A stretch of 64,000 bases of DNA from Candidatus Anstonellales archaeon (GTDB lineage: Archaea; Micrarchaeota; Micrarchaeia; Anstonellales; J096): contig JAWACY010000002.1 in NCBI GenBank assembly GCA_038896535.1, positions 64,001 to 128,000 on the forward strand. Direction: 5' to 3'. How positions within the stretch are numbered: the stretch's first letter is position 1; every line of letters starts with the position of its first letter. A model generated the notes under the pieces. That model was not told where the DNA came from. It did not search any database and saw nothing but the letters and a program-made list of their open reading frames with translations. Made by a program: the position numbers and the translations under genes. Below are positions 41,498 to 57,681 of the stretch, in pieces.

Positions 41498-41611
41498 ATT
41501 TTATATAATTGCATAAGTTTTTAAAGCCTTTATACAAATATTTTTTTAGTGATGACATGAACAACCTCTGAACATATGATGAAGCTGACAGCGTCTGAAT
41601 TTGGTGGTAAT

Positions 41612-42028: not shown

Positions 42029-42312
42029 AAATAAGCATTTTATATTAATCATTTTCTATCAATCTATCCTGCAATCCAGTTTTTATTCTACCAAAATGCT
42101 AACCCAAGATAGCCCACAGATAATACACAAGATAAATCAATAAAGTTAATAAAAAACAAATGAAAAAAGCGATAAACAATAAAAATAAAAAATAATAAAA
42201 TAATAAAAAAAGAAAAAAGAAAAAAATCAAAAAGAAAAAATCAACAAAAAGCAAATAAAAAAGCAAAACAAATGTTTAAAAATGTTGCATAACATAAATT
42301 ATTGGTGGTTTT

Positions 42313-44499
42313 ATGGTTGAGAAACTGCAAAGCCCTCCTCCAGCATATGAGGAAATAAATAAAAACACGAAGGATGAATCAAGAAAGCTGGCATTGGAAG
42401 CCCTTAACTCCCTCAGAAATAACCCCAAATTCAAACAAGAATGGTTAACAAAAGAATTAGGAGAAAAAATCTCATCAATAACAAAGAAAATAATAGAAAA
42501 CACATCAGGAGAATCAAGAAAGTGGGCATTCGAAGCTCTTAACAACCTCCTACAAAACCCAAAATTCAACCCAGAATGGCTAAAACCAGAATTAGGAGGC
42601 AATATATCATCAGTAGTTAATAAGATTATGAGAAACGATTCACTAAGTGAAGAGCAAAAAAGGGCCTCATTAAATAATTTAAATGGACTTCTTCAAAATG
42701 CAGAAAATCCCATACGGATATTGTCAGGACAAGGAGCCACACAACAAACACCAACAGTTAGAGGAGAAGTGGCAAGAAGAGCAAGGAGCCAGATGCAAAG
42801 TGAAAATTATTATAGAGGCATTTCTACTGCTCTGGCTTATTATTTAGTTGGTAAAACTAAATATGAATATTTAATAGCGGAGCAAAGGGATCAACTCCAA
42901 AAATATGGAGTTGATGAAAAAACATTTAATGCTTATATTAAATATTTTAGGGAAAAGGGGGTAAAAAGTAGCATTGTAGATAAAGACGCTTATATTAGGG
43001 GCGTGCCTTTAGAAGAAGCACTTTTTGTAATACTTGTAGTAACAGGGACTGGACCAGTTGGAATGGAGACAATAAGAGAGATAACTAAGAATTACAATGA
43101 AACAAACAAAATGAAAGATATTAACGATTTATTTGGAGGGTCTTTGGCCCACTTAAGTCAACGAGGTGTAAGGGGAGCAAGTGGCTATAAACAGTATTTT
43201 GGTGGTGTGATTGATTATCTAACATGGGAAAGTCCTCAAACGCAAGCAGGACCTTTAGAAGCAATTGGAGATATATTAAGAATGGCTAATGATAACAGAA
43301 AGAATTGGGGAGAAAAAGCTGTAAAAGAAGCATTGGATAACATTAGGGGGCTACTGGCTCAACCAGCACCACCTAAAGTTGAAGAAGGAAAAGTTCCACC
43401 AGCAACAGAACCTATAATTGGAAGGCCAGGTGCTCCCCCTCATGCTGAACAACAACCTGCGCCTCCTATAGCAACACCAAAGCCCGCTGTCACCGCACAA
43501 CCACCAGAAAAAGTAGAATTATTATCGCAGGGAGATTTGCAGAAAATAGTTGATAAATTAAACCAAAATCAAAATAAACCGCCTTATACTAAGTATGGTG
43601 TAGATGAGAGTGAGAATAAAATTAATGTTGCTTATGAAGTGGTTAAAGTGTTGGGGCTTGGTGAAGGACTCACACAAGACATAGAAGAATCAAGAAGGCA
43701 AAGAGCAGCAGTTGATCATGCATATAAGATTATAACTAATTTATCACCAAATGTTGAGGAAAGGAGGCTTTATTTAAAGAATGTAAACCCAGCAGCATTT
43801 GAGGATTTGAGGAGAATATTAAGTGGAACATATGCTTCTAAACTTTTAGATGACATTATAGGTGATGAAGCTGGTAGAAAATATATAAACTTAAAAAACC
43901 TTGATGCATTATATACAACACTTACTAAAGATGGTAGACATGTGTTGATAAAAAGTTTATTGAACGCTGCTGGCGTTAATGAAAATGATTTCTTAGATTT
44001 TATTAATTGGGATAAAGATAAAAAGGAAATTAAAAGTCTTAAAGACTTATGGGAAAGGCTTAGCGATGATGAAACAGGAGCAATGCTGGGAACTGCTGTG
44101 ATGTTTATTGCTGGGTATAAGGGTAATTATTTATACACATCTTATCGCAGCAGGGAGGGCGCAAAAACAGAAATAAGTTTTACTACAGAAGATGTTGAAA
44201 GCAAAATAGGCAAAGGTGGGGGAGTTGTATTAAGTATTAGGGCGCGCTATGGAAATGGACCAATAGAAACAATAACAGAAAAAGAAAAAGGAAAGGGGCC
44301 AATAAGTGAAGAAGATAAGTCAGCACAACCAAGTCTAACGCCTGGCGGTGGAGGGGCTGAGACCCCCCCCACAGCGGAGGGAGGAGGAGAAGGAGAAAAA
44401 AGAGAAGGAACAGAAAGCCAACAACAAGAAAAAAAAGAAGAAAAACAAACAGAAACACCACAAGCACCAGAAGGACCAGGAGGACCAATAACACCATAA
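42313..44499 (+). CDS. 728-aa orphan protein with helical repeats and Pro-rich/acidic disordered segments
   Basis: Long ORF with GGTGG RBS. No signal peptide and no recognised family. Confidence 0.85.
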   Translation: MVEKLQSPPPAYEEINKNTKDESRKLALEALNSLRNNPKFKQEWLTKELGEKISSITKKIIENTSGESRKWAFEALNNLLQNPKFNPEWLKPELGGNISSVVNKIMRNDSLSEEQKRASLNNLNGLLQNAENPIRILSGQGATQQTPTVRGEVARRARSQMQSENYYRGISTALAYYLVGKTKYEYLIAEQRDQLQKYGVDEKTFNAYIKYFREKGVKSSIVDKDAYIRGVPLEEALFVILVVTGTGPVGMETIREITKNYNETNKMKDINDLFGGSLAHLSQRGVRGASGYKQYFGGVIDYLTWESPQTQAGPLEAIGDILRMANDNRKNWGEKAVKEALDNIRGLLAQPAPPKVEEGKVPPATEPIIGRPGAPPHAEQQPAPPIATPKPAVTAQPPEKVELLSQGDLQKIVDKLNQNQNKPPYTKYGVDESENKINVAYEVVKVLGLGEGLTQDIEESRRQRAAVDHAYKIITNLSPNVEERRLYLKNVNPAAFEDLRRILSGTYASKLLDDIIGDEAGRKYINLKNLDALYTTLTKDGRHVLIKSLLNAAGVNENDFLDFINWDKDKKEIKSLKDLWERLSDDETGAMLGTAVMFIAGYKGNYLYTSYRSREGAKTEISFTTEDVESKIGKGGGVVLSIRARYGNGPIETITEKEKGKGPISEEDKSAQPSLTPGGGGAETPPTAEGGGEGEKREGTESQQQEKKEEKQTETPQAPEGPGGPITP
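42376..42636 (+). repeat. Intragenic tandem repeat, 135-nt (45-aa) period
   Basis: GAATCAAGAAAG starts at 42376 and 42511. ESRKLALEALNSLRNNPKFKQEWL versus ESRKWAFEALNNLLQNPKFNPEWL. Confidence 0.85.
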
Positions 44500-44881
44500 A
44501 ATAATAAATACAGAACAGAGAACAGGACATTCGGGCAATGAGGGGGTTAGGTAGGATTGTTAGGTGGGGGCAGGGGGAGGTTGTTTTAGATGGGGTTATT
44601 TGGGCGGTTGGTTATTTATGAATACTGATGGAGAGATAGGATAAAAAGAATAAAAAGTTGAGCTTATTATATCACTTATCTTATGATATTATAGAGTAAA
44701 TAGATAAAGACAAATAAAATCAATGAGAGATGAAAAAAACACGATAACAGATTTGGGGAGAAGTGTTAAAAATAAGAGCGTGTGCTTTGTATATGGGCTG
44801 TTTTATCTCAAAAAATATCTCAAAAAAATCAACATGCGGAATTATATAGTATAAAAAGCAATAAAAACCAAATAAAATTCA

Positions 44882-47800
44882 TTATTTCTCTTCTTCAAGT
44901 TTTTTCTCTAATGCTTTCAAATCCTCAATGAGTTTATCAAATGTTTTTTGTTCGGATTGCTCTCGGAAAATACTAGGGGCACTAACCCTCAAAAAATTAA
45001 AGTACTCTTCATACCTGCCGCTGAAATCTCTAAAACACAGACCAGGCATATTATAAAGATCGTTTATATCATCCCTCATTTGGTTTTTGAATTCTTGTGA
45101 TGTTGTTTTTTTAGTGGCCATTTCTTGTGCTGTCTTTAGAAATTGCGCCTCATAACTATCTGGCACTAGTAAAAAATATGATTCAACACCATCTTGACCT
45201 ATTTTTCCTCCTACTGCTTTTATATAACCTAACGGATTATTTACGATAGATGTATAAAGATTTATTACCTTCTTGATTGAACTAAACTCCGTTTGTTCTT
45301 TTTCTGCTTCCTTTTGTTCTTGTGTTGGTTCTAGTTTTTTGTATAAATCGTTAAATAATCTTGTAATTTCCCCTTCGTTGCCAAGCAATTTTTTCAACGC
45401 TTCATATTCACTTTCTCCCAATATCTCTTTAGCGAGTTTTCCGTCTTCTACTTCTAGTAAAGGAGTATAATAATATATAATGGGCTCTAAATTCCTCAAA
45501 ACTGTTAAAACATCTTCAAAATAGCTTAAATAAGCATTTCTTATTTCACTCCTTATTTTAGATATTTCAAGCAACACATGATATTTAGCCCTTTCTGACA
45601 AATTAAATTTTTTCAGCTTCTCAATTAGTCTTCTCTCTTCTTCCTTTAACTCATTTATTCTGTCTTTGGTTTTTTCCAATGCCTCGTTATTCAATTTTTC
45701 TAATTCATTTATGTAGTTATTTATTGTTCCGCTGTCATATTTTGATAAAAAATCATGTAATGAAACCTGCTCTCCGTTAAAATAAAACCTATAATGAAAA
45801 GGCGTAAATGGTTCTTTAATACCAAGCAAGCTTAAAAAAGGCGACAAAAGTGGCACTCTTGCTTTTTTCTCATCCTCATACTGTTGTTTTACTATTTCTC
45901 TAAATCTATTATCGATCTTACTAATCACATTGTCTTTATCTAAACCAAATTTCGTTGCAAATGACTCCGCAATTCCAGTCTTTATCTCCATAAATGGCGC
46001 TGCACTACCATAATTAACCTTAAAAAACATGAAATCTATTAAAGCTCTATAATCAAGCTTAATATAATCAGCGGCTTCCTCAATAGAAACACCGTATGTT
46101 TTTGCAAGCGCTAAAATCCTTCTTACGGAATAAGAAAGAGCACTTATTACATCCCCTGTATAATTCCATTTCCTTTCATATATAAGAGCCCCTACATCTT
46201 TCTTAAATTTTTCTATGTTGCTTATTCCACTCAATTTTTCTACTGCTTTAACCAATACCTCAACAACATCGCTTTCCTTCATATCGCCAGAAAGATAAAA
46301 AACAGGTGAGCTGGGGTTTCGAATATCTATTTTTGTACTGAGATATGTTATTATTGCAGCCATTTCTCTTATTTGTTCCGGCTTTAGAGTATTCAGGTTA
46401 ACAAGTTTATTTAATCTTACGTATCTCTCCCTCATTTTTTCTGCTATTTTTTCTCTTAACGTTTTTCTTGCTTCGTCTCCATTATAAAAACTATAACTTA
46501 TCCATTGCTTCTTTTCCTCTTCCAACTCTTTTATCTCTTTTTCTCTTTGCCCCCTTATTATATCCCATGCTTTCTTGAATGCTTCCCCTCCTTGTTCAAC
46601 AAGAGTAAATATAAATTTCGGTGGAAAGCCAAAAGTTGATATATCCTCCAATTTCGATATTGATGCAAATTGCAATGTTTCATAAAATGCTTCTAATGAT
46701 GCATACACATAACTATTCTTGCCAAGAGGGTTTTTTCCATTTTCCAGTGCTTGCAGGATTCTTTCCATTAAACCCTTTGCTCTTATAATATCACCAAAAA
46801 TAAGAAGTTTATAAACAATTTCCATATGTTTTGACAGATCTTCTGTTTTTTCTATTTTTATCTCAGTCTTCAACAAATTATCTGCCAACACTGCAGTTCT
46901 CTTATAAAAATCAAAAGCCGAACTTAATACGTTCTTAGCTGCTTCCAATGGGGATATGCCAAGTTTTTTTATGTATTCTAATGCTGCTTCACCTGTATAA
47001 ACTATAATCTCTCCTGATTTGCCTGTTTCTACATAAATCATACCTCTTGCCCTTATATCTCTTTGATATTCACCACTAAATGCATTATTTACATACATAG
47101 CCAAAATATAAAATGCTGCCATTTGTGTATTTGTAAAAACAAATTTCCCAGATCTTATATTTAATGCGCCAGCCGGTGTTTCAAGGCTTAATTTACCGCC
47201 AGCCAGCCACCTAAAATCGAGTAAATCCGGGGCTAATGTAATGCCTGCATATGGCCCAAACTTATGAGACACTCCTGCTAAAAATTCTTCAACCTCGGCC
47301 TGAACATAAGGGTTCCATTGTGGCACTTCTGCCCCAATTGCAACGCCAGAACTAGAAGTTGGAACTTGCATTCTTCTGCCTTCAGGATGTGGTATTTCTT
47401 GTATTGTTCTTTCTTCTACCCTAACTCCAAATCCAGCTGTTGGTTGGAGCTTTTCTGTTGGGGTAATTATCACACCGAAACGAGGGCCTGCCTCTAACCT
47501 TTGTTCATAATAATTAGTTATTGCTGTTGTACCTCTGTTTATAAATACTTCCTCTAAAGCGTTTTTAATATCTTCCAAATTCGCATGTCTATTTTTTGAA
47601 CTCTTGTAAAGAGATTCAACTAGGCCCTCTAAATCTCCTTTTGTAAGATAAACAGTACCCCCCAACAGTTCTTTTATCTTCTGTAGTTCTCCTTCTGATA
47701 GTAAAATACCGCCAGACCCAGCCAAAGCTTGTGGGCCAGCTAATAAATCAATAGGTAGAACAAATACTCGACTCTCTTGATCATATATAACTACTTCCTT

Positions 47801-47986
47801 GCCATTATAGGTTATCTTACCATCCCTCCCTATTTTATAACCAGCATTTTTCATCTTATTTAAAAGCCAATCATAAACCTTTCTCCATGGTTCTCTCTTG
47901 TATTCTTGCTTTTTTCTTTGCTCCTCTGCCTTCTCTGCTGTTTCCCTTGTTCGTTGTTCCAGTTTACTTCCTTTTTCTTGCCCCAA
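44882..47986 (-). CDS. 1034-aa orphan protein; amphipathic beta segment followed by long helical region
   Basis: Long ORF, TTG start after GGTGG. No signal peptide. Confidence 0.85.
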   Translation of the reverse strand: MGQEKGSKLEQRTRETAEKAEEQRKKQEYKREPWRKVYDWLLNKMKNAGYKIGRDGKITYNGKEVVIYDQESRVFVLPIDLLAGPQALAGSGGILLSEGELQKIKELLGGTVYLTKGDLEGLVESLYKSSKNRHANLEDIKNALEEVFINRGTTAITNYYEQRLEAGPRFGVIITPTEKLQPTAGFGVRVEERTIQEIPHPEGRRMQVPTSSSGVAIGAEVPQWNPYVQAEVEEFLAGVSHKFGPYAGITLAPDLLDFRWLAGGKLSLETPAGALNIRSGKFVFTNTQMAAFYILAMYVNNAFSGEYQRDIRARGMIYVETGKSGEIIVYTGEAALEYIKKLGISPLEAAKNVLSSAFDFYKRTAVLADNLLKTEIKIEKTEDLSKHMEIVYKLLIFGDIIRAKGLMERILQALENGKNPLGKNSYVYASLEAFYETLQFASISKLEDISTFGFPPKFIFTLVEQGGEAFKKAWDIIRGQREKEIKELEEEKKQWISYSFYNGDEARKTLREKIAEKMRERYVRLNKLVNLNTLKPEQIREMAAIITYLSTKIDIRNPSSPVFYLSGDMKESDVVEVLVKAVEKLSGISNIEKFKKDVGALIYERKWNYTGDVISALSYSVRRILALAKTYGVSIEEAADYIKLDYRALIDFMFFKVNYGSAAPFMEIKTGIAESFATKFGLDKDNVISKIDNRFREIVKQQYEDEKKARVPLLSPFLSLLGIKEPFTPFHYRFYFNGEQVSLHDFLSKYDSGTINNYINELEKLNNEALEKTKDRINELKEEERRLIEKLKKFNLSERAKYHVLLEISKIRSEIRNAYLSYFEDVLTVLRNLEPIIYYYTPLLEVEDGKLAKEILGESEYEALKKLLGNEGEITRLFNDLYKKLEPTQEQKEAEKEQTEFSSIKKVINLYTSIVNNPLGYIKAVGGKIGQDGVESYFLLVPDSYEAQFLKTAQEMATKKTTSQEFKNQMRDDINDLYNMPGLCFRDFSGRYEEYFNFLRVSAPSIFREQSEQKTFDKLIEDLKALEKKLEEEK

Positions 47987-48039
47987 TATCCCACCATTTA
48001 TTTATTAAAATATTCATTTCCTCGGCATGTGCACAATCA

Positions 48040-51000
48040 TTACCTAGTAGCCTTCAGTTTTGAGATCCTAAAAATGGCATCAAAATATGCTTTCACTACC
48101 TCTCCTGTTCTTTGAATGTTCAGTGCTATGTCGCCCCCATATTGACTTATTTCTGCGGGCCATGTCTCTGATATTGCCATACTACCATACACAACAATTC
48201 CTTGGAGCAGTTCATTACTTAGATCTTTACCAATAACTGTGGCTCTATACACACCACTACCAAGACGCCATGTCTCATCACTTATATTATTAAAAACAAT
48301 CTCACCATTCTTGATGCTATAATTTATCTCTCTTACTTCATTGTTGAAAGTAAAATCCCCCCTTACACCAGTGCCACCTGGAGTCATGCCTGGCCCACCT
48401 ATATCATGAGTATAAACACCAGTTGCAAGCCAACTTTTATATTTACTGATCTGCCCAATAATAATATCTTCCCTTTCTTTATTTTTTATCTTTACTCCCT
48501 CGCTCGTTTTAACTCTCTCGCCAAAAGCAAGTTGAACATTTGTAACTCTTCTAAGACCAGTTAGATATGTGTTAACTAAATTAAATGTGCCTGTCATTCT
48601 TCTGGCTATTAACTCATCTGCCTTTTCTCCTCCTGCTCCTACATATTGTGTCCCCCCTGTTCCGAAAAATAGCCACTTATTATCTTCTCCTGCAAGAAAG
48701 CCAAGCCACCCACTTGTAGCATCTTTTTGCCCCTTAGCTATATCTATATTTGTTCCTATTAATAACTTACCACTAACAAACTTCGCCTCTAATCTCCCCT
48801 CTAATGCTCCGCCTGTTATTGTTATCCTCTCCTTGCCATTAATTGTTTTGCCGTTTAAATTTTTTAAAACCGCTTCTCCTGTCTTTAAAGGCCCTAAATT
48901 TCTTGTCCACCCACCTAAAACAATAAGCCTCCCTTCTTGGTTTGGGGCAAGAGCAACAATTGCTGATATCTTATTCTTATCATCAAATTCAACATGCACA
49001 AAAGCATGCCTAACCTCCAAATCCTCTATTTTCTCTCTTCCAATACCAGCAATAGCATTAATGGTTTCTGTATCTAAACCTGCGTATGAAAGAAATTGCA
49101 AAACAGTCTTAGGATCTCCTTCTTTTTCTCCATTAACTATCAAAAGGTAATCCCTTAAAAAATACGTAAGAGCTGCTTGTAAACGCCTCCTCCCCTCATT
49201 AAAGTTGTTTATAATACCAAATTGAAAATCAGTACCAAAACTTTGAAGAGTTTCTATTTGTTTTTTTAATAGTGGATCACCTAGATCCTCATTTATTGTT
49301 CTCACAGAATACCCTAATGCTGCTAAAGCAATTGGTGCATTCCTGTATGGATTTGTATATTGAAATTGTGCTCCATATTCTAACTGTACTTTTTTAGGTG
49401 TCCAATGCTTAGTGACTTTATCAACAAAACCTTTTGCTTCCCAATTTGTTGTTCCTGGGGGCGCACTTATCCCACTAATATATACGCCCCGTCTTCCCAT
49501 TACGTCATAAATTTTACCTACGAAGATACTATAATTCCTTTGATCAAGATAGGATAAACCACCTAAGCCACCACCACCAATTGGTAAGTTCTGCCCAATT
49601 AAAAAACCGCCCCATTGATTAACCTGAAGTGCTGGGGCTGCTACAAAACCATCAATACTTGGTTTATTATGCAAGGCTATAACAAGACCATCTAGACTAG
49701 CCAGAGTTGTTCCCTTTGTTTCTCTTCCTCCTTGCACACCAGTTTCAATCACCAATCCCTGCGCCTTTGCCAAATTCCCCTCCTTTGCCTTTTCCCTTAC
49801 CCCTAAGTTATTAAGATAATTTATATACTCCTTTGCTTGTTCTTGTGGTACATAAAAGTATCCTGCTTCTGCATAAGTTCCATTTGGTTGTCTATAAAAA
49901 ATTCTTGCTTTATACTCTCCTTTCTCTATTTCCCCTCCTTTTGTTTTTTCGAAAACAAGGCCAGTTTCAACACCAGTCGGTAATAATAAATTCAACTTGT
50001 CCAAAGTTGTTAATTCTTTTGGCCCTTTATAAGATGCGTTGGCTTCAACAGTCCACAAAGTATTCCCGTCGTTGAGATTCACTCTTTTAAATCTTCCCTC
50101 TGCTATTGTTACTGCCCCCGAATCACTTGAGCCCCCGCCACCACTCAACTCAGCTTCTGTTCTGGTTATGCCTGGAAAGGCCCGTTGAATGTAGCTAAGT
50201 CTTCCGCTGAAATATCTACTCCATTGTCCCTCGCCATTTCTTTCCGCTCTGTAAGTACCGCCAAACGTTCCTTCAATAACTTTAAATGTCAGAGGTCCTT
50301 CAATTGGCAAATACTTGCTCAATATCTTGTTTAATTTACTATAATCAAATGTAAAATAAGGCAAGATTAATTGCAATGCTGGTGTGGTTAAATTAAATTC
50401 CAACATTTCTCCGTTTTCTATTGTTTTTCTGAGTTCTTCAAATGTTTTTGGTAGTGCAGTTGGTATTTCGCCAGGAAGAAGATAACCATGAAGAGAATTA
50501 TACACGGTTCTTGGAAGGTTGATATTGATCTTTAAATCTGGTATATTTACAGTAAAACCTTGTTGTTCTGTTTGTGTTATTTTTATTTTAAAAGTTTCTA
50601 AGCCAGTAGTCTGGTCTCTTTCAACTTTAAGATTTTCCATTTTTATATCTTGAATGGTTGGAAATATTTTATTTAATTCAGTTCCGACTTCACGCAGAAA
50701 ATTTATTGCGCCTGCTGTATAATTACTTTCATATAATGCCTGCGCACTACCTAAAATCAAAGACAACCCATGGCTAAGTATCTCAGTGTTGCCTTGTTTG
50801 CTTACAAAGGGCGTTAGATAAACTGCAGCAGCAAAATGCAGCTCAGGGCGTATCATAGAAAGATTCTCAATAAAAATCCTTAATTTTTCTCCTTCTACTG
50901 TCTTAAGAAATTCTCTAATTTTACTCATCGTTATACGTTCAGGGTCTCCGCCAAGCAAGGAAGCGGCATGCTTGGCTATATAAATTTGTGCGTAGTAATT

Positions 51001-51834
51001 AAGTAGCGCGAACTGTTTCTGTGTTGTCGTATTAGATCCTAAGGCCTCAAAGAATTTATTTCTAATTTCTAAATCTTTTGCCAAATTTTCATCACCATAG
51101 GGCAATATGAATTTTCTCAGTTCTGCCATTTGTTTCTCATTTTCAATTTCAATTTTGCCGTCATAATAAGCAAAAATGTCAGCTATAGCAGTTTGTCTTC
51201 TTCCATAAAATGTTGATAGAATTCTATGGAACAGCGTTCTTGTATCAAGATTGAGATTACTCAAAAGATCTTCGAAATCCTTGAGATCTCCATCTTTCCT
51301 TTTAATCTTTTCTTCTAGAACTTTCTCTAATTTTTCTCCTAATAGCCTTTTGTATTTAGTTTCAAGTTTTTTTAGGTTACCCCAAACTTCTTCTAATCTC
51401 TTTATAAAATCATCAATCTTTCCTCTTACAGTTTTTGCGTCTGCATCGGGGGGAATATTTAGAAAACAATCCGCATAAGCATCCTCTATTATTTTAGCCT
51501 GGGAGGTTAATTCATTTAATAATTTCTTATATTCTTGTATGAGCTCCCTTTCCTTCTCTGAAAAAAAGTCTAGATTAAGTTTACTTAAATATTGAACAAA
51601 CTCATTTAATGTTCTGTAGTTCAAGGCGTATTGGGTATATTTAGGCACTTCTTCCTCTATTTTCTGTGGAGCCTTCATATTAAATAGAAGCGTTAAACCC
51701 ATTACTACGCTCTCTCTTTGCTTCTGCGCCTCATTTGCTGTTTCTATTGCTCTTCTTTTTCCTTCTGTTAGTTCTTCTGTTAGTTGTGGTGTTTCTTTTT
51801 TTCCGACCGGACTTTTTTCTTGTGTGGCTGGCAT
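48040..51834 (-). CDS. 1264-aa orphan protein; helical N-half, Gly-rich beta-strand C-half
   Basis: Long ORF with TTTAAA box about 25 nt upstream. No signal peptide. Confidence 0.88.
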   Translation of the reverse strand: MPATQEKSPVGKKETPQLTEELTEGKRRAIETANEAQKQRESVVMGLTLLFNMKAPQKIEEEVPKYTQYALNYRTLNEFVQYLSKLNLDFFSEKERELIQEYKKLLNELTSQAKIIEDAYADCFLNIPPDADAKTVRGKIDDFIKRLEEVWGNLKKLETKYKRLLGEKLEKVLEEKIKRKDGDLKDFEDLLSNLNLDTRTLFHRILSTFYGRRQTAIADIFAYYDGKIEIENEKQMAELRKFILPYGDENLAKDLEIRNKFFEALGSNTTTQKQFALLNYYAQIYIAKHAASLLGGDPERITMSKIREFLKTVEGEKLRIFIENLSMIRPELHFAAAVYLTPFVSKQGNTEILSHGLSLILGSAQALYESNYTAGAINFLREVGTELNKIFPTIQDIKMENLKVERDQTTGLETFKIKITQTEQQGFTVNIPDLKININLPRTVYNSLHGYLLPGEIPTALPKTFEELRKTIENGEMLEFNLTTPALQLILPYFTFDYSKLNKILSKYLPIEGPLTFKVIEGTFGGTYRAERNGEGQWSRYFSGRLSYIQRAFPGITRTEAELSGGGGSSDSGAVTIAEGRFKRVNLNDGNTLWTVEANASYKGPKELTTLDKLNLLLPTGVETGLVFEKTKGGEIEKGEYKARIFYRQPNGTYAEAGYFYVPQEQAKEYINYLNNLGVREKAKEGNLAKAQGLVIETGVQGGRETKGTTLASLDGLVIALHNKPSIDGFVAAPALQVNQWGGFLIGQNLPIGGGGLGGLSYLDQRNYSIFVGKIYDVMGRRGVYISGISAPPGTTNWEAKGFVDKVTKHWTPKKVQLEYGAQFQYTNPYRNAPIALAALGYSVRTINEDLGDPLLKKQIETLQSFGTDFQFGIINNFNEGRRRLQAALTYFLRDYLLIVNGEKEGDPKTVLQFLSYAGLDTETINAIAGIGREKIEDLEVRHAFVHVEFDDKNKISAIVALAPNQEGRLIVLGGWTRNLGPLKTGEAVLKNLNGKTINGKERITITGGALEGRLEAKFVSGKLLIGTNIDIAKGQKDATSGWLGFLAGEDNKWLFFGTGGTQYVGAGGEKADELIARRMTGTFNLVNTYLTGLRRVTNVQLAFGERVKTSEGVKIKNKEREDIIIGQISKYKSWLATGVYTHDIGGPGMTPGGTGVRGDFTFNNEVREINYSIKNGEIVFNNISDETWRLGSGVYRATVIGKDLSNELLQGIVVYGSMAISETWPAEISQYGGDIALNIQRTGEVVKAYFDAIFRISKLKATR

Positions 51835-51864
51835 AGAAAAATTTGAATAAATGAGTTTAAAAAT

Positions 51865-53712
51865 CTATATGAAATACTTGCAAGGAGAATTTAAAAGCGT
51901 TAGATTAATATCGCACTTATAGTCTAATTCTTTCGTTGCTCCGCCTATATTTCTTTGCACATTTTCTATTGTTAAATTAATTGTATAACTCTTTTTTTCG
52001 TCTTCACGCATATTATTAAAACCGTCCCTTGATGCTGTGGCATTAAATAGCATATAAGCTTGTTTTGGTTGAGATGTAGTCGTGTCGTTAACAATACTTA
52101 TTAATGCTGATAATTCAGCCAATAAATCACTGCCATCTTTAACCCCATACTTAGGAGCATTATCACAGCTCAAATATCTGTTTTGAGATATGTCAAAACC
52201 GCAAAATATATAACTGTATTTAAGAGTGCCGGGCAGCAATATAACTTTAACCGGCTGAGGAGAGCAAGCCAAAGATCCCATGCAATAAAACACCCTACTC
52301 TTATTGTTATCATCCTCATTGCTTTCAGCTATACTATTTTCAGGATCAGCACTCGTATTTACCTCTATTATTTTAAATTCATCTTCGCATATTAAATTGA
52401 ATTTTACTATATTATTATCTGGTGATAGCTCATATTTATCCTCTATTATTGTGCTTTGTGTTTGTGTTGTTTCTTTAATTTTCAATGATAAATTTGCTTT
52501 TCCTTGTGGCGGGAAATTTTCAAAAATAATCGATGCATTACACTCATAACTTCTGCCTTGGCCTATTTCATTGCCATTAAATGGGCATGATATGTCTGAT
52601 TTTAAGTTTGGTGTCAATATATTTACTGTTATTTGTGTAGTTATTGTATAACCACTACACCCAGATTCTAATGATTGAATTGTAACATTAAATGTCAGGC
52701 TTGCTGGCATTGGTTGATTGCCATTATAATTTAAATCCCCTGTTACATCAGCACTACTGCCACTAGCTATTTCCACCTGATTATCAAGAGAAAAAGCGAA
52801 ATTATTATCATTAGGCACTACAGATATAACTTTTATCTTCTCTTCTCCATTATTTGTGACTTTTATTGTAACTTTTGTAGGGTTTCCAGTATATACAATT
52901 CCATTACTTGATAACTGAACATTTATTAATTTACAATATGGCACATTAACCGGCAAGCTTATTGAGTAAGCATCTGTAGGTTGCCTGAAATATCTTATTC
53001 CTTCCCTAAAAGAAAAATAAGTATCATTCATATCAACAAGTAAGACACAAAAATAATTGGCATTTGCATTTATTGAATTTGGATTATTACTTATTGTGAA
53101 AGTTTTGGCAAAACTATTGCCTGATTCGCCACTTATAGATTGATAATAATTGTTAACAGATATATCCCCATGACAATACATTACTGCTGAACCATTTGAG
53201 ACTTTCCAGTTATTATCATTATTATAATATTTAACATTTACTTGCCTCCCGTTTGAAATTGAGAAAGCACATGAACCAGTTTTATTAAAATAATAATAAC
53301 CAACGCCATTACCAAAATCTGTTTTACAATTGTTTGATGCGTCGAATGGAAGCGAGCCTTGTTGGATAAAATTTACTGTTAAATTTTGCAATCCGGGCCC
53401 AGTTCCGCCAGTCGAGCCAAATGAAGAGCTTGTTGATGATATTACATCACCAGTAGGCCAAAACTTTAAAGTTAGGTTTGCTAAAACGTTAAATGGTTTA
53501 TTTGGTATTACTTTTTGAACTCTTACACCATTTTGATAAAAATCAACTGAAAAGTTAAATAACCATGAAATTGGAGCAATTAAATCAAAATTAGTTTGTT
53601 GCCCTGAACGAGGAGCATTTCCTGCCTTATATAAGTCACTTCCAGATTGTGATGTTTGTGCACTAAAAACAATTGTTAAAATTAAAAATAAAAAAAATAT
53701 TTTTTTTATCAT
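51865..53712 (-). CDS. Secreted Ig-like/CARDB-domain surface protein
   Basis: Signal peptide MIKKIFFLFLILTIVFSA, Asn-rich with many N-x-S/T sequons and paired Cys, CARDB-like ADPENSIAESNEDDN. Confidence 0.8.
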   Translation of the reverse strand: MIKKIFFLFLILTIVFSAQTSQSGSDLYKAGNAPRSGQQTNFDLIAPISWLFNFSVDFYQNGVRVQKVIPNKPFNVLANLTLKFWPTGDVISSTSSSFGSTGGTGPGLQNLTVNFIQQGSLPFDASNNCKTDFGNGVGYYYFNKTGSCAFSISNGRQVNVKYYNNDNNWKVSNGSAVMYCHGDISVNNYYQSISGESGNSFAKTFTISNNPNSINANANYFCVLLVDMNDTYFSFREGIRYFRQPTDAYSISLPVNVPYCKLINVQLSSNGIVYTGNPTKVTIKVTNNGEEKIKVISVVPNDNNFAFSLDNQVEIASGSSADVTGDLNYNGNQPMPASLTFNVTIQSLESGCSGYTITTQITVNILTPNLKSDISCPFNGNEIGQGRSYECNASIIFENFPPQGKANLSLKIKETTQTQSTIIEDKYELSPDNNIVKFNLICEDEFKIIEVNTSADPENSIAESNEDDNNKSRVFYCMGSLACSPQPVKVILLPGTLKYSYIFCGFDISQNRYLSCDNAPKYGVKDGSDLLAELSALISIVNDTTTSQPKQAYMLFNATASRDGFNNMREDEKKSYTINLTIENVQRNIGGATKELDYKCDINLTLLNSPCKYFI

Positions 53713-53724
53713 TTTTTCACTTTA

Positions 53725-56700
53725 TTATGTAGATTCAGCATTCTTAAATAATTCTTCTGCCATTTCTTCTGGATCTCTTGTTATTGTTCTCCCCCATGCA
53801 TCTACATCTTCTGTTCTTAAACCTATCTGTTCTAAAAGCCAATTAACTGCCCTCTCTGCTCCAGACACAATAACTGTAAGTATTGGGACAAAGTAAGGGC
53901 CTACTTGAATAACAGAAATGCTAGGGTTAACAGACCAGTTCTCTCGCTCATAACTAACTGTATAAGTATTTATTAATCCCACTGATGGAATTGGGCTCCT
54001 TGCCCAAGATAAACCAAATTTTCCACCGCCAATTGCATAACTAGCTCCTGCTCCCCACATTAAACCGGCGCTGCTAAAACCAACAAATGGAGAAACAGTT
54101 AAATCTCCTAATCTAACATATGGGGACAGAGCAGCCATTCCATAAATAGCGAGGGCATTAGTTGCACTAGCACTAAGAAGCCAGGCAAGTCCAACATTCT
54201 CATTCCCAAATATTGGGAATGCAGTACTTATTCCAACTCCGGGATTTACAAATTTTCCATTAACAAACATAATTTGTGGCTGAATAGTAAATGGCCCCTC
54301 ACGAAACTCTAAGCCAACAATTGCTGTCCTTCTCAATCTATCAGCAAATAATTTTTGCTTTTCTTTTAATGTTAATTCTCTTGGCCTCTGCTCTCTTACC
54401 TCTTTTATTATTGGTTTAATCTTCTCTTGGTCTTTTTTATCAAATTCAAGCCCGCCTAATTTCTGGCCATTACTGTCTTTTACTTCAATAAATATTTTAT
54501 CATTTGTTTCTGTTACTGTATAATTATAATTCCTAAGATTGTGAGCCACATTTTTAAGTCCTTCTTTTGTATTTTCTCCTATATTAGGTATCTGATCGAT
54601 CTGATCATCGGTTGGCACATTAACGACCCAATTACCATTTTGCTTCGTGAGAGTTAAATTTTGCTGTAATTTCTTTATTGCTTCTTCAGCAAGGTTGCCG
54701 CCTACATCAGAAGGTAATATTGAACGAAATTCCGTCAAAGATATTTCATAACCAACAACTTCTGTTCTTATTATTGATTCCGTTGCTGTTGTTGGTAGGC
54801 TAACTACTGGCACAACTGGAAGGAGTGTTAAGTCTGGCTTTCTTGGCTGAATAAAAATTGGTGTTCCTACATTATCTATCATACCATAAAATTCTACTTT
54901 TGGCAGTTGCGGAGCTCTACTAACACTTTCTGAAGGAACAGGCATAGTTATAGAAAATTCTCCTCCCCACCTTGAAACGCTGCCATAACCAAGCTCAACA
55001 TCGCCATTCAATACAAAATAGTTGCGCCATATAAGTGCATCTTTTTTGTTATCCTCTTCTTTTTCATTCTTTTGTGATAGCATTAAAATTGCCATACTGG
55101 CACTTGATGCCATTATTATATTTTCTCTATCATTTTCTGGTGTCAGGACAAGCCTATCATTTTTCGTTACTAATATATCATCTTTTGCGGCTGCGTTAAC
55201 TGTTACATTCCCTCTATTATCAACATTAACTCTATAAACTGTTATTCTTTCACCATTTGGCTTTAAGATATCTATGTTATAAGTTCCGGGCTTTAAATTT
55301 TTTGCTTTAATTGTCTCTTGAATATTTTCAATCTTTTGTTGACTGCCAAACACATTTCTGTTTATATTGATGCCTTCTGTTGCTTTTTGCCATCCAGCTA
55401 TCCAATTTTGAGCATTAAATGCATTTCCAACCAGATCTTCAAATGGATATTCAACTGCCTGTATTGCAAACAAAACTGCTGCAGCATCTTCAACCGATAT
55501 TTTATTACTAAGGCCAAGTTCTTGTATCAATTTTCTTGCACTATCTCTTAAGTTATTCTTTTCTGTATCAGACATGGAATCAAAAATCCTTTGTGTATTA
55601 TTCAGAAAGTAATCAAAAACCGCGTTATATCTCCTCCTATATACTTCATTAGCTTCTTCGCTTACATAACCAAAATACCTTCTTATAACAAATTCTTTTA
55701 GGCCATTCAAATCATTTACTCTGCTGCCTTTAGCATATTTAACAATCCAAGCAACAGATGGATAATAGCCAAGAAATTCTTGGCTGTATTCATAACTTGC
55801 TGTTATACTATAACCTTTACCTTTCTTCTTTTCTCCTGCTGGTTTATAATATACTCTTGTCTCTGTTGCCCCTTGTGGTGGTTGTGGCTGCAGTGGTGAT
55901 TCAGGTGGTTTTTGTTCAACTTCAACATACTTAACCGGTAGCTTTGGTTGTATGCTTTCTACAAGTTTTAGAATACGCAAACCCTGCTTTTGCTCTTCTG
56001 ATCCTTTAGCAAAATATTCGTTTTTATTAAGCTCTTCATTAAAAGCAGAAATCTCATTATCGGTTTTTAAATGCTCCTTTATAATATTAAGCACATCGAC
56101 CTTTTCATTATCAGGCAACTGCTTATTCATAATTTGTATTAATGCTATTCTCCTGATTAAAGGCTCTAAAAACAAGGGCATAAAATCTTCTTCTATCCCT
56201 ACTCTTTTTGCCAGTGAAACAAGCTCACTCCTTATATCATTATCCTCTTTCTTTAACTGTTCTATCTGTGCAATAACATCTTTTAGATTAACATTATTCT
56301 TCAACATAAATACAACATCATTTATATCATAACCATAATCCCATAATAAACTTTTTACATCTTCCTCATTATTTTCATTGATAGTAATATTTTTTTGTTT
56401 TAATTTTTCTTTTATTTGCTGCCACACAACATCTGACCATTTTTCTTTTATTTTGTCTTCCAGATATTCGTTAAAATCTCTATACTTCATGCTTCTTAAG
56501 TTAATACTTTTTTCATACCAGTCTTCATCCAAAAGTTCAGCAACAAATGATAAATATTCATCCGCTGTCATTGAATTCATTATTTGAGTCAAAAAATTTT
56601 GCCTTCTCATAGAAACAATTGAAAATGCTTCTCTATCCCCTGCACTTCTATATGATAATCTTTCTTGAATAAGAATTAAAGCAAATTGGTTTGCAACTGT

Positions 56701-57681
56701 CATTGTAGAAGCTTTTGCATTCATATCAGCAAATGTTTTTGCCAGCTTTCTGTATTGCTTTTCAAACTCTTCTTTTTCTTGATCTCCTGAATTTTTACTT
56801 ATACTGTCTTTATAGAATTTTTGTAGTTTATCATAAAATTCTGAGACAATAAGATAAATAGATGCCAGCTTTCCTGCTTCTGCATCAAAAAGATGAAGAT
56901 ACTTACTTGGCAATTTTCCTCCTTCTACCAATCTTTCTACTACTCCCCTTAAGTCATTCATGCCTTTACTCAACTCATCGTAAAAATCATTCATCGATTT
57001 TGTTAGGTCTACTTTTTGTTCTCTTTCTCCTATTTGTTCATTAGAAATTAAAATGGAATAACCCTTAGCTAGAGTCAAATTCAAATATGCAACAGAATCA
57101 TAAAGCTCTTTGCCGGTTTTGAGCTTTTTTTCATCAAATAATGCTTTCATAATAAGTCCTATTGTTGCTTCCATATATACATTTTTTTCTTTTGCTGGCA
57201 ATTCTAAACTTTGGCCAATTGAATCAAAACCATCATAAGCAATGCCAATAACTTGCAATAGACTAAGCCTTATTCTTCCAGCTTCTGTTCCAACATCTTT
57301 TAACTCTGCAAGAGATTTTATCACATCTGCAATCTCTTCATCCCCTAATCCTTTCCTTTTTGCAGCTAATTCAACAAGCATTGCTGCTTCTATTGTTGAC
57401 GCATATCTTGCCTTTTCTTTAGGGTCTTTTTCATTCAATATACTCTCTATAAGTCCCCTATCAGTCCTTACAAGATAGGCAATTCTACCAAAAAAAGTTC
57501 TAGGCCATATTTTTGCATAACCTTGCTTTACTAATCTATCTATTAACTCACCTTCATTTTTTATTTGAAATTTGTTTACATATGCACTTAATACTTCTTC
57601 GCTTACCCCATATTTTTGTGCTAATTGCTTAACATCAATTTGTTTTTCAGTTGCTGTTTGATCAGGCATTTTTACACCCAT
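53725..57681 (-). CDS. 1318-aa orphan protein; helical N-part, C-terminal beta-barrel-like block
   Basis: Long ORF with no signal peptide. C-terminal ~155 aa of alternating hydrophobic beta strands. Confidence 0.88.
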   Translation of the reverse strand: MGVKMPDQTATEKQIDVKQLAQKYGVSEEVLSAYVNKFQIKNEGELIDRLVKQGYAKIWPRTFFGRIAYLVRTDRGLIESILNEKDPKEKARYASTIEAAMLVELAAKRKGLGDEEIADVIKSLAELKDVGTEAGRIRLSLLQVIGIAYDGFDSIGQSLELPAKEKNVYMEATIGLIMKALFDEKKLKTGKELYDSVAYLNLTLAKGYSILISNEQIGEREQKVDLTKSMNDFYDELSKGMNDLRGVVERLVEGGKLPSKYLHLFDAEAGKLASIYLIVSEFYDKLQKFYKDSISKNSGDQEKEEFEKQYRKLAKTFADMNAKASTMTVANQFALILIQERLSYRSAGDREAFSIVSMRRQNFLTQIMNSMTADEYLSFVAELLDEDWYEKSINLRSMKYRDFNEYLEDKIKEKWSDVVWQQIKEKLKQKNITINENNEEDVKSLLWDYGYDINDVVFMLKNNVNLKDVIAQIEQLKKEDNDIRSELVSLAKRVGIEEDFMPLFLEPLIRRIALIQIMNKQLPDNEKVDVLNIIKEHLKTDNEISAFNEELNKNEYFAKGSEEQKQGLRILKLVESIQPKLPVKYVEVEQKPPESPLQPQPPQGATETRVYYKPAGEKKKGKGYSITASYEYSQEFLGYYPSVAWIVKYAKGSRVNDLNGLKEFVIRRYFGYVSEEANEVYRRRYNAVFDYFLNNTQRIFDSMSDTEKNNLRDSARKLIQELGLSNKISVEDAAAVLFAIQAVEYPFEDLVGNAFNAQNWIAGWQKATEGININRNVFGSQQKIENIQETIKAKNLKPGTYNIDILKPNGERITVYRVNVDNRGNVTVNAAAKDDILVTKNDRLVLTPENDRENIIMASSASMAILMLSQKNEKEEDNKKDALIWRNYFVLNGDVELGYGSVSRWGGEFSITMPVPSESVSRAPQLPKVEFYGMIDNVGTPIFIQPRKPDLTLLPVVPVVSLPTTATESIIRTEVVGYEISLTEFRSILPSDVGGNLAEEAIKKLQQNLTLTKQNGNWVVNVPTDDQIDQIPNIGENTKEGLKNVAHNLRNYNYTVTETNDKIFIEVKDSNGQKLGGLEFDKKDQEKIKPIIKEVREQRPRELTLKEKQKLFADRLRRTAIVGLEFREGPFTIQPQIMFVNGKFVNPGVGISTAFPIFGNENVGLAWLLSASATNALAIYGMAALSPYVRLGDLTVSPFVGFSSAGLMWGAGASYAIGGGKFGLSWARSPIPSVGLINTYTVSYERENWSVNPSISVIQVGPYFVPILTVIVSGAERAVNWLLEQIGLRTEDVDAWGRTITRDPEEMAEELFKNAEST

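Follow-up and report, generated by a model that had tools for sequence, protein, structure and literature searches.

It is still an open question by what means DPANN archaea attach to their hosts and trade material with them, and for the Micrarchaeota we know of no molecular parts of these processes. Among the described systems close to the one reported here are sets of giant surface proteins in other symbionts. The SPEARE proteins of the Nanohaloarchaeota are reportedly very large surface proteins. In the symbiont Apilactobacillus kunkeei, a cluster of genes for giant surface proteins, Giant1-5, has been described (available text of PMC12863079). The present analysis concerns a window of 64,000 nucleotides (nt) from Candidatus Anstonellales archaeon, a member of the Micrarchaeota, that is, positions 64,001 to 128,000 of contig JAWACY010000002.1 in assembly GCA_038896535.1. 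Within the window lies a cluster of five large open reading frames (ORFs) of 728, 1034, 1264, 615 and 1318 amino acids (aa), named A728, B1034, C1264, D615 and E1318 after their order and length. The locus is best read as a strongly diverged version of an undescribed, Micrarchaeota-specific cluster of giant envelope proteins.

Like the Giant1-5 and SPEARE genes, the five genes are consecutive, very large and fast-evolving, and they occupy a considerable part of the genome of a small symbiont, 2.0% in this case. The Giant1-5 and SPEARE proteins are exported and carry recognisable adhesin, protease or Ig-like domains, whereas four of the five proteins here have no recognisable domain or clear export signal. 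No published description of these genes or of Micrarchaeota barrel proteins was found in the literature searched, which included the available text of PMC11329633, PMC8784108 and PMC12228718; the first of these describes an envelope with a surface layer (S-layer) and the last a possible distant porin-like relative in Altiarchaeales. The cluster provides concrete candidate genes for host attachment and exchange.

The cluster and its genomic setting

The genome consists of 751,790 bp on five contigs and is 91% complete; the cluster lies on contig C2 (Table 1). ORF calling confirmed the five ORFs and the tight packing described in an earlier, sequence-only reading of the window, in which four co-directional genes were separated by 12 to 53 bp. 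B1034, C1264, D615 and E1318 all lie on the minus strand, on which E1318 comes first, followed by D615, C1264 and finally B1034, with gaps of 12 bp (E to D), 30 bp (D to C) and 53 bp (C to B). A728 and B1034 converge across a spacer of 382 bp. Shuffling the region 50 times yielded stop-free frames of up to 209 codons, so the five ORFs are much longer than expected by chance. TATA-like boxes were seen by eye, against an archaeal consensus, about 25-30 nt ahead of the starts of C1264 and E1318, and GGTGG-type ribosome-binding motifs, also by eye, ahead of the starts of A728 and B1034. A bacterial-type scan for promoters and terminators returned 70 sites against 67.5 expected and was not informative.

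Table 1. Coordinates of the cluster genes and of the domains within their products (positions in the 64,000-nt window)
Feature	Position	Strand	Description
A728	42313..44499	+	No signal peptide; two N-terminal helical repeats of ~47 aa, A-domain, Pro-rich linker, Gly/Glu/Pro-rich tail
A-domain, A728 residues 151-345	42763..43347	+	Three-sequence profile
B1034	44882..47986	-	Orphan with abundant Glu, Lys and Leu; starts at a TTG preceded by a GGTGGG motif
C1264	48040..51834	-	Rare Micrarchaeota giant-protein family; charged leader, helical region, long beta meander
Beta meander of C1264, residues ~515-1254	48073..50292	-	AlphaFold2 model: ~29 long strands, two helical inserts
Helical bundle of C1264, residues ~280-400	50635..50997	-	AlphaFold2 block H2-121, pLDDT 60-91; best-predicted part
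D615	51865..53712	-	Secreted, cysteine-rich surface protein (predicted); signal-like N-terminus
CARDB-like domain of D615, residues 405-472	52297..52500	-	Pfam PF07705, 19.0 bits against a cut-off of 22.7
E1318	53725..57681	-	Orphan without a signal peptide; extended N-terminal portion with much Glu, Lys and Leu; hydrophobic beta domain close to the C-terminal end
Barrel-like domain of E1318, residues ~1112-1277 (~165 residues)	53851..54348	-	Single-sequence AlphaFold2 model, VIA-align

The G+C content of the cluster is 0.33-0.38, compared with about 0.30-0.31 in its flanks. The impression of the sequence-only reading that the region is richer in G+C therefore stands, but a foreign composition does not follow from it: the surplus sits in codon positions 1 and 2 and stems from the amino-acid composition. 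The G+C content of third codon positions (GC3) is typical for the genome (z -1.3 to +0.7) and codon usage falls inside the genome's range, which marks the cluster DNA as native. The same reading had called the region Gly-rich, and this holds for A728 (8.9%) and C1264 (10.0%; genome mean 5.6%, sd 1.9) but not for B1034, D615 and E1318, whose Gly content is ordinary. Glu, Lys and Leu are plentiful in B1034, C1264 and E1318. The Lys content of the cluster proteins is 5.5-9.6%, against a genome mean of 9.8%. The five genes are real and they are native to this genome.

None of the five proteins matches a Pfam family above cut-off, and NCBIfam and PADLOC returned nothing meaningful for them. Sequence searches of the Protein Data Bank (PDB) with E1318, B1034, A728, the C-family profile A2 and the D alignment A4 (both families are described below) gave nothing significant. 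There is no paralogy among the five (blastp, best E 0.09). Searches of Pfam and PHROGs, and of a viral fold library with the C1264 model, gave no confident match to a housekeeping, S-layer or viral structural protein. The flanking genes encode housekeeping functions that fit an archaeon, namely aIF2-beta, aIF1A, a RIO kinase, UbiA, Hsp20, Hjc and ArgRS (Pfam). Their order is not kept within the genus, where only a PDDEXK gene, plus UbiA in one genome, is retained.

Orphan genes with a G+C content above that of the flanks, in surroundings whose order is not conserved in the genus, could be what is left of a virus, a plasmid or some other mobile element that had integrated and that encoded structural proteins. 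Such an origin is highly improbable given the native GC3 and codon usage. As the sequence-only reading had remarked of integrases, capsids and transposases, none of these, and no terminase either, was detected by Pfam among the five proteins and the 53 other window ORFs that were scanned. PHROGs gave just one weak match, of B1034 to a family of unknown function (E 0.0075), PADLOC gave none, and viral contigs held nothing similar to B1034. Scans for Rfam families, tRNAs and tandem repeats showed no tRNA or repeat bounding the cluster, and a search of the viral fold library with the C1264 model produced no confident or coherent match (template modelling score, TM, at most 0.11). A viral or mobile origin was rejected, since PHROGs, PADLOC, the viral contigs and the viral fold library all failed to support it.

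A rare family of giants that includes C1264

When used as a single query, C1264 retrieves only itself from a database of 5.8 billion proteins, no protein from 150 other genomes of the phylum and no usable match from the ESM Atlas. A collinear relative with 25% identity is present in G153, a genome of the same genus, and profiles built from the two detected giants of 1200-1765 aa in further genera. Judged by a profile search run exhaustively over 1.84 billion representatives, C1264 is a member of a rare Micrarchaeota family of giants, here called the C family, that comprises 35 clusters (32 at E <= 1e-10 and 25 at E <= 1e-30) and whose members are mostly 1200-2420 aa long. Pfam was run on 25 of the 35 clusters; 24 gave no match, and in P0026 a peptidoglycan-binding domain (PG_binding_1) was found. 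Of the ten other clusters, one is the self-hit, three are represented elsewhere in the analysis, as loci or in a shorter form, and six are fragments.

Residues 74-1250 of C1264 are collinear with positions 607-1779 of the family profile A3 (E 1e-132), a match that begins in the helical core and extends into the beta region at the C-terminal end; the first ~600 profile positions are missing from C1264. The family profile finds no paralogue of C1264 in its own genome. The distribution of the family is patchy: the profile matches 20 of 401 sampled genomes of the phylum, including both genomes of genus g1, 12 of 76 in family f6, two of six in f14, two of three in f15 and the single genome of f27, and none of the 94 genomes of f9 or the 83 of f10.

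N-termini in the C family typically have a charged leader, often with an MP start and often with RR, which is then often followed by a signal-like hydrophobic stretch. Signal peptides were judged by the maximum of Kyte-Doolittle hydropathy over 13 residues within the first 90 aa, which is a crude measure. With a strict threshold of 1.8, a signal-like stretch is present in 12 of 26 full-length representatives. By the same measure D615 reaches 2.98, compared with 0.30 for A728, 1.41 for B1034, 1.52 for C1264 and 0.52 for E1318, none of which has an N-terminal hydrophobic segment; this bears out the earlier statement that four of the five proteins lack a signal peptide. The counterpart of the signal stretch in C1264 is degenerate (VVMGLTLLF). 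Since relatives often carry a signal-like stretch, the signal-less C1264 looks like a degenerate state rather than a property of the family. The charged leader without a signal, as proposed in the sequence-only reading, describes C1264 itself and probably not the family. At the other end of the protein, 23 of 34 C-family representatives terminate in F, W or Y, compared with 66 of 700 ORFs of this genome.

The giants could be structural parts of the cell wall, either as S-layer accessory proteins or as components of an alternative S-layer. Residues 1015-1119 of C1264 show a faint likeness to an S-layer protein from G235 (phmmer E 3.7e-5, set of 24 sequences) that itself matches Pfam S_layer_C, and the Deinococcus S-layer complex SDBC appears at rank 40 of the Foldseek list for the C1264 model. 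In a larger set, however, the similarity to the G235 protein falls to 12 bits (E 0.0026), the S-layer orthologue of the present genome, located away from the cluster (G000:C1:28602-31364), is not matched by C1264 at E < 1, and no Pfam S-layer family (PF05124 S_layer_C) is found in any of the five proteins. A family present in 20 of 401 genomes is also too patchy for a core wall component. A structural role of this kind is very unlikely, and the S-layer link of C1264 was rejected as too weak on account of the low bit score and the unmatched orthologue.

Gene order in relatives and the link between A728 and C1264

The arrangement of the cluster recurs in relatives. In six genomes (G193, G216, G212, G205, G133 and G238) a giant of 1200-1783 aa is followed by a mid-size protein of 340-834 aa and then by the C-family giant, which is itself sometimes followed by another giant; the last step, from a C-family giant to another giant, is seen in G151, G108 and G202. 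The order E, D, C, B in the window has the same shape. Comparison of E1318, D615 and B1034 with their positional counterparts in family f6 by hhalign gave probabilities of at most 0.3%, that is, no detectable homology.

A728 has relatives only in G153 and G151, both of the same genus. A profile of its A-domain recovers A728, residues 225-400 of a protein at G153 L031 and residues 48-212 at G151 L016, with E values of 1e-64 to 1e-87, and no protein besides these three in the sets searched. The G151 match corresponds to residues 6-170 of P0004, so that in this sister species the A-domain forms the N-terminus of a C-family giant. This fusion ties A728 functionally to C1264 despite its location on the opposite strand.

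The mid-size protein between the two giants contains a GDSL-lipase domain in G193 and G216 (L019:5389-7542 and L020:4941-7445), and in G151 a protein with an SLT lytic-transglycosylase domain (L017:13202-15175) adjoins a second C-family member. Archaea have no murein. The occurrence of GDSL lipase, SLT transglycosylase and PG_binding_1 (P0026) in company with the giants is odd in archaea.

D615 and the gene upstream of it

The sequence-only reading had described D615 as a secreted CARDB-type protein. The score of D615 itself lies below the Pfam cut-off (Table 1), and its orthologue in G153, which aligns with it at 27% identity, clears the cut-off with 26.7 bits. Orthologues of D615 exist in all three other genomes of the genus. 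The alignment of the four proteins (A4) has 35 invariant columns, seven of them Cys, and the stretch ADPEN...E.NE.NN is conserved. The N-terminal half of the D family is variable while the C-terminal half is conserved and ends in the motif C..N.T...N.PC.Y.I. Within the order, 14 of 176 genomes have a D-family member; most of these belong to family f1 (10 of 18), and none is among the 40 genomes of genus g14.

In six genomes from two genera, the D-family gene stands directly behind a large gene whose product is without a signal peptide and has a beta-rich end. In the present genome (G000) this gene is E1318; elsewhere the upstream proteins are 620 aa (G151), 1734 aa (G152), 1398 aa (G031), at least 604 aa (G130) and at least 351 aa (G270) long. 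Within genus g2 the upstream proteins form one related set, without detectable similarity to those of genus g1. Alignment by hhalign of the C-terminal parts of E1318 and of the G151 (620 aa) and G152 (1734 aa) proteins, among themselves and with the g2 trio, gave probabilities of at most 0.4%; no kinship is detectable among these three g1 proteins either.

Two of the upstream proteins end in ...HFTSNVF (G151, L028:12324-14186) and ...GIGVEF (G130, L049:10451-12265), which look like bacterial outer-membrane beta-signals. Both are without detectable similarity to E1318.

Predicted barrel-like domains of C1264 and E1318

The structure of C1264 residues 280-1264 was modelled with AlphaFold2 from an alignment of 36 rows that excluded the self-hit and a fragment of 127 aa. 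The model comprises a helical bundle followed by a long beta meander (Table 1), the latter with a predicted local distance difference test score (pLDDT) mostly below 60 and patches of 74-91. For E1318, a single-sequence AlphaFold2 model of residues 1040-1318 shows 11-12 strands, predicted to form a barrel of 10-12 strands, and then a helical tail of ~40 aa. The sequence-only reading had seen long helical regions joined to beta blocks in three of the proteins, and these low-confidence models agree with it for C1264 and for the end of E1318.

Foldseek searches of the PDB with the C1264 model placed FimD and PapC ushers, CirA and BamA on top, with E values of 3e-5 to 3e-3. In a VIA-align comparison with 48,161 chains, all 50 matches listed are, by their titles, outer-membrane-type barrels or complexes that hold one (Z 10.0-7.3, with 23 chains at Z >= 8). 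The best are OmpT (Z 10.0, rmsd 5.9, 159 residues aligned), BtuB (9.8), CdiB (9.5), and Hbp and EspP (both 9.1). According to the guidance for this program, best Z values of 7-8 are common for models without a true match, so the result is suggestive and no proof.

The E1318 domain covers nearly the whole length of small membrane barrels with an rmsd of 3.3-4.0. Its best VIA-align matches are the designed barrel TMB10 (Z 11.3, rmsd 3.7, 140 of 143 residues), KdgM (10.7), EstA and a Legionella porin (both 10.6) and NanC (10.5), and the weak rows in its Foldseek output are mostly porins, VDAC and Tom40. One face of its strands has a mean hydropathy of 1.73 and the other of 0.05, as expected of a lipid-facing barrel. 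These comparisons lead us to infer, tentatively, barrel-like folds for C1264 and E1318.

A candidate envelope complex

Taken together, the recurring gene order, the A-domain fusion and the predicted folds suggest that the five products reside in the envelope. We give the assembly of all five into one envelope or host-contact complex nearly even chances, a little short of probable. In such a complex, E1318 and C1264 would be large scaffolds held in a lipid or S-layer-associated layer by their barrel-like domains, which would be a compact hydrophobic domain of 10-12 strands in E1318 and a very long beta meander in C1264. D615 would be exported by the Sec route and could act as an exposed binding module, stabilised by disulfides, that docks on the product of the gene immediately upstream. 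A728 may provide, as a separate polypeptide, the domain that the C-family giant of the sister species carries by fusion, and B1034 would be an accessory subunit. The complex would most likely mediate contact with a host cell or with the symbiont's own envelope. The earlier proposal of a surface adhesin accompanied by membrane-inserting proteins independent of Sec survives in outline, as a CARDB-type protein that stands beside signal-less large proteins, two of them with predicted barrel-like domains.

A number of observations speak against this interpretation. The models are of low confidence: the mean pLDDT is 55.5 for C1264, with a predicted TM (pTM) of 0.41, and 51.9 for E1318, whose barrel domain has values of 32-61. 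FimD and PapC, the best Foldseek matches of C1264 at E 3e-5, reach a TM of only 0.11-0.17, in a range of 0.09-0.17 over its top matches with large rmsd, and Foldseek found nothing at E <= 0.001 for the E1318 model. Soluble 10-strand barrels fit the E1318 domain nearly as well as membrane barrels (Rv2717c, Z 10.3; nitrobindin, 9.2). The strands of C1264 are weakly amphipathic (1.06 versus -0.62) and bear many charges. Neither protein has a convincing signal peptide or an aromatic terminus (...ISKLKATR in C1264, ...FKNAEST in E1318). The genome, 91% complete, encodes no Omp85/BamA that PF01103 could find, while the same search matched 7 of 14 control genomes, and a cultured Micrarchaeon is reported to have an S-layer over a single, cytoplasmic membrane (available text of bioRxiv 10.1101/2021.04.28.441871).

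Other objections concern the genes as a set. E1318 and B1034 are without any relatives: each retrieves only itself from the 5.8-billion-protein database and nothing from five related genomes, the Atlas holds no usable match to E1318, and the C-terminal 269 aa of E1318 have one weak match, broken by stops, among the 175 other genomes of the order. Between the genera, and within g1, the proteins encoded upstream of D-family genes are not detectably homologous, and the conserved pair may therefore be a positional coincidence or the result of non-orthologous replacement. The sequence-only reading had named conserved co-occurrence across related genomes as a test; the sub-modules do recur in related symbiotic archaea, but the D and C families occur together in this genus only. 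As to expression, the locus is present in six DNA datasets from two hot-spring studies, with no RNA dataset listed.

The same observations can be accommodated by an intracellular scaffold, in which A728, B1034, C1264 and E1318 are cytoplasmic, cytoskeleton-like or membrane-shaping proteins, E1318 is anchored from inside and the barrel models are artefacts. The absence of N-terminal hydrophobic segments from these four proteins, the Glu-, Lys- and Leu-rich composition of three of them, the helical N-terminal part of the C1264 model, the low pLDDT of the beta regions and the lack of Omp85 all agree with such an arrangement. It is less easily reconciled with the signal-like stretch that often follows the leader in C-family relatives, with the bias of this family towards aromatic C-termini, with the operon partner D615, which is clearly exported as far as its signal-like N-terminus predicts, and with envelope-directed domains in or beside family members elsewhere. 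We regard the scaffold as rather unlikely, and prefer an envelope location.

Alternatively, the proteins might be delivered to the host as pore-formers or effectors, with the barrels entering the host membrane as a nutrient pore or conduit and D615 serving as a targeting adhesin. Micrarchaeota have been described in the literature as host-dependent, the genome is as small as 752 kb, and the organism offers the barrels no known outer membrane or Omp85 of its own. Extreme sequence divergence and a patchy family distribution would be expected of host-interaction genes, and lipase, lytic transglycosylase and peptidoglycan-binding domains are found in related clusters. Yet there is no likeness to known families of pore-forming toxins in Pfam or NCBIfam beyond sub-threshold noise, an example of which is alpha-xenorhabdolysin A with 16.6 bits against a cut-off of 125. 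The sequence-only reading had suggested export through a VirB2-like pilus, a link that finds no support: no VirB-type Pfam family occurs among the 53 other window ORFs that were scanned, and no secretion system lies nearby. Delivery into the host appears quite unlikely.

The envelope complex would take its most far-reaching form if C1264, E1318 and their relatives were genuine lipid-embedded beta-barrels, made by Micrarchaeota without a BamA-type insertase, that sit in a still-disputed outer layer or in the host membrane and act as a conduit for attachment and resource uptake. We consider this unlikely. The cluster is not filed with bacterial outer-membrane proteins because of the lack of Omp85, the lack of a clear signal or terminal aromatic residue in C1264 and E1318, and the S-layer over a single membrane that is reported for a cultured Micrarchaeon; no curated outer-membrane protein family in Pfam or NCBIfam matches any of the five proteins. 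If they were true membrane barrels, one would have to revise the view that transmembrane beta-barrels are confined to the outer membranes of bacteria and organelles, and lipid-embedded barrels here would mean that archaea had invented or acquired the outer-membrane-protein fold without a classical outer membrane. If the barrels are not real, what the locus offers is a family of giants that is rare and evolves fast, together with a conserved two-gene module made up of the D family and its upstream partner.

Other features of the window and the genome

The spacer between A728 and B1034 contains a G-rich segment (window positions 44530-44620, plus strand) in which runs of four to five G alternate with short spacers, although the genome has only ~31% G+C; the segment is single-copy. 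Just upstream of the promoter-like region of A728 lies a very A-rich, imperfectly repeated tract (42134-42263). Over the start of the Hsp20 gene (41545-41600, plus strand) there is a weak match to C/D-box small RNAs (sRNAs), with 25.7 bits for Rfam sR2 (gathering threshold 42) and 22.3 bits for sR14 (38). A ferric-reductase-like ORF, with a TTG start as listed, overlaps the divergent start of E1318 by 31 bp (57651-57681); its true start is probably further downstream. The same genome encodes other very large proteins with classical signal-like N-termini, of 1764, 2047, 1640 and 1288 aa (G000:C3:7081-12375, C3:20599-26742, C1:233878-238800 and C1:180326-184192, respectively).

Comparison with known systems

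Type Va autotransporters of diderm bacteria resemble the predicted E1318 and C1264 in having a large passenger-like region followed by a C-terminal barrel-like beta domain. Autotransporter structures are among the best matches of the models (EstA 3kvn, AIDA-I 4mee, NalP 1uyo, BrkA 3qq2, Hbp 3aeh and EspP 8qp5), with VIA-align Z values of 9.2-10.6 for E1318 and 8.5-9.1 for C1264, and the C family shares with them the signal-like stretch of the leader (strictly judged, 12 of 26) and the aromatic end (23 of 34). There is no sequence similarity, however, and the present proteins come from an archaeon without a known outer membrane or Omp85/BamA. E1318 and C1264 also differ from autotransporters in lacking a clear signal or a terminal aromatic residue; the barrel-like domain of E1318 is followed by a helical tail of ~40 residues, and the ~29 strands of C1264, interrupted by helical inserts, contrast with a 12-strand barrel.

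The small barrels KdgM (4pr7), NanC (2wjr), OpcA (2vdf) and TMB10 (8uzl) are like the end of E1318 in having one hydrophobic strand face, and superpose on it over 140/143 (TMB10), 158/171 and 161/204 residues with an rmsd of 3.7-4.0 and Z values of 10.5-11.3. Unlike them, the E1318 domain is the tail of a signal-less protein of 1318 aa, known from a model with pLDDT of 32-61. With the large barrels FimD, PapC, BtuB, CirA, BamA and LptD, the C1264 model shares long meanders of antiparallel hairpins with more than 20 strands (VIA-align Z 9.8 for BtuB and 8.8 for PapC). The likeness is confined to this strand arrangement, as C1264 has no plug, no POTRA and no sequence similarity to these proteins, and its strands are weakly amphipathic.

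The CARDB surface proteins (PF07705) are the known group closest to D615. D615 differs from them in its score below the cut-off, in the ~500 other residues that are without any family and in a C-terminal Cys motif that is specific to its own family. In common with the CARDB proteins, D615 and its orthologues have a predicted signal peptide, a domain resembling CARDB and, with their many Cys, the look of extracellular proteins.

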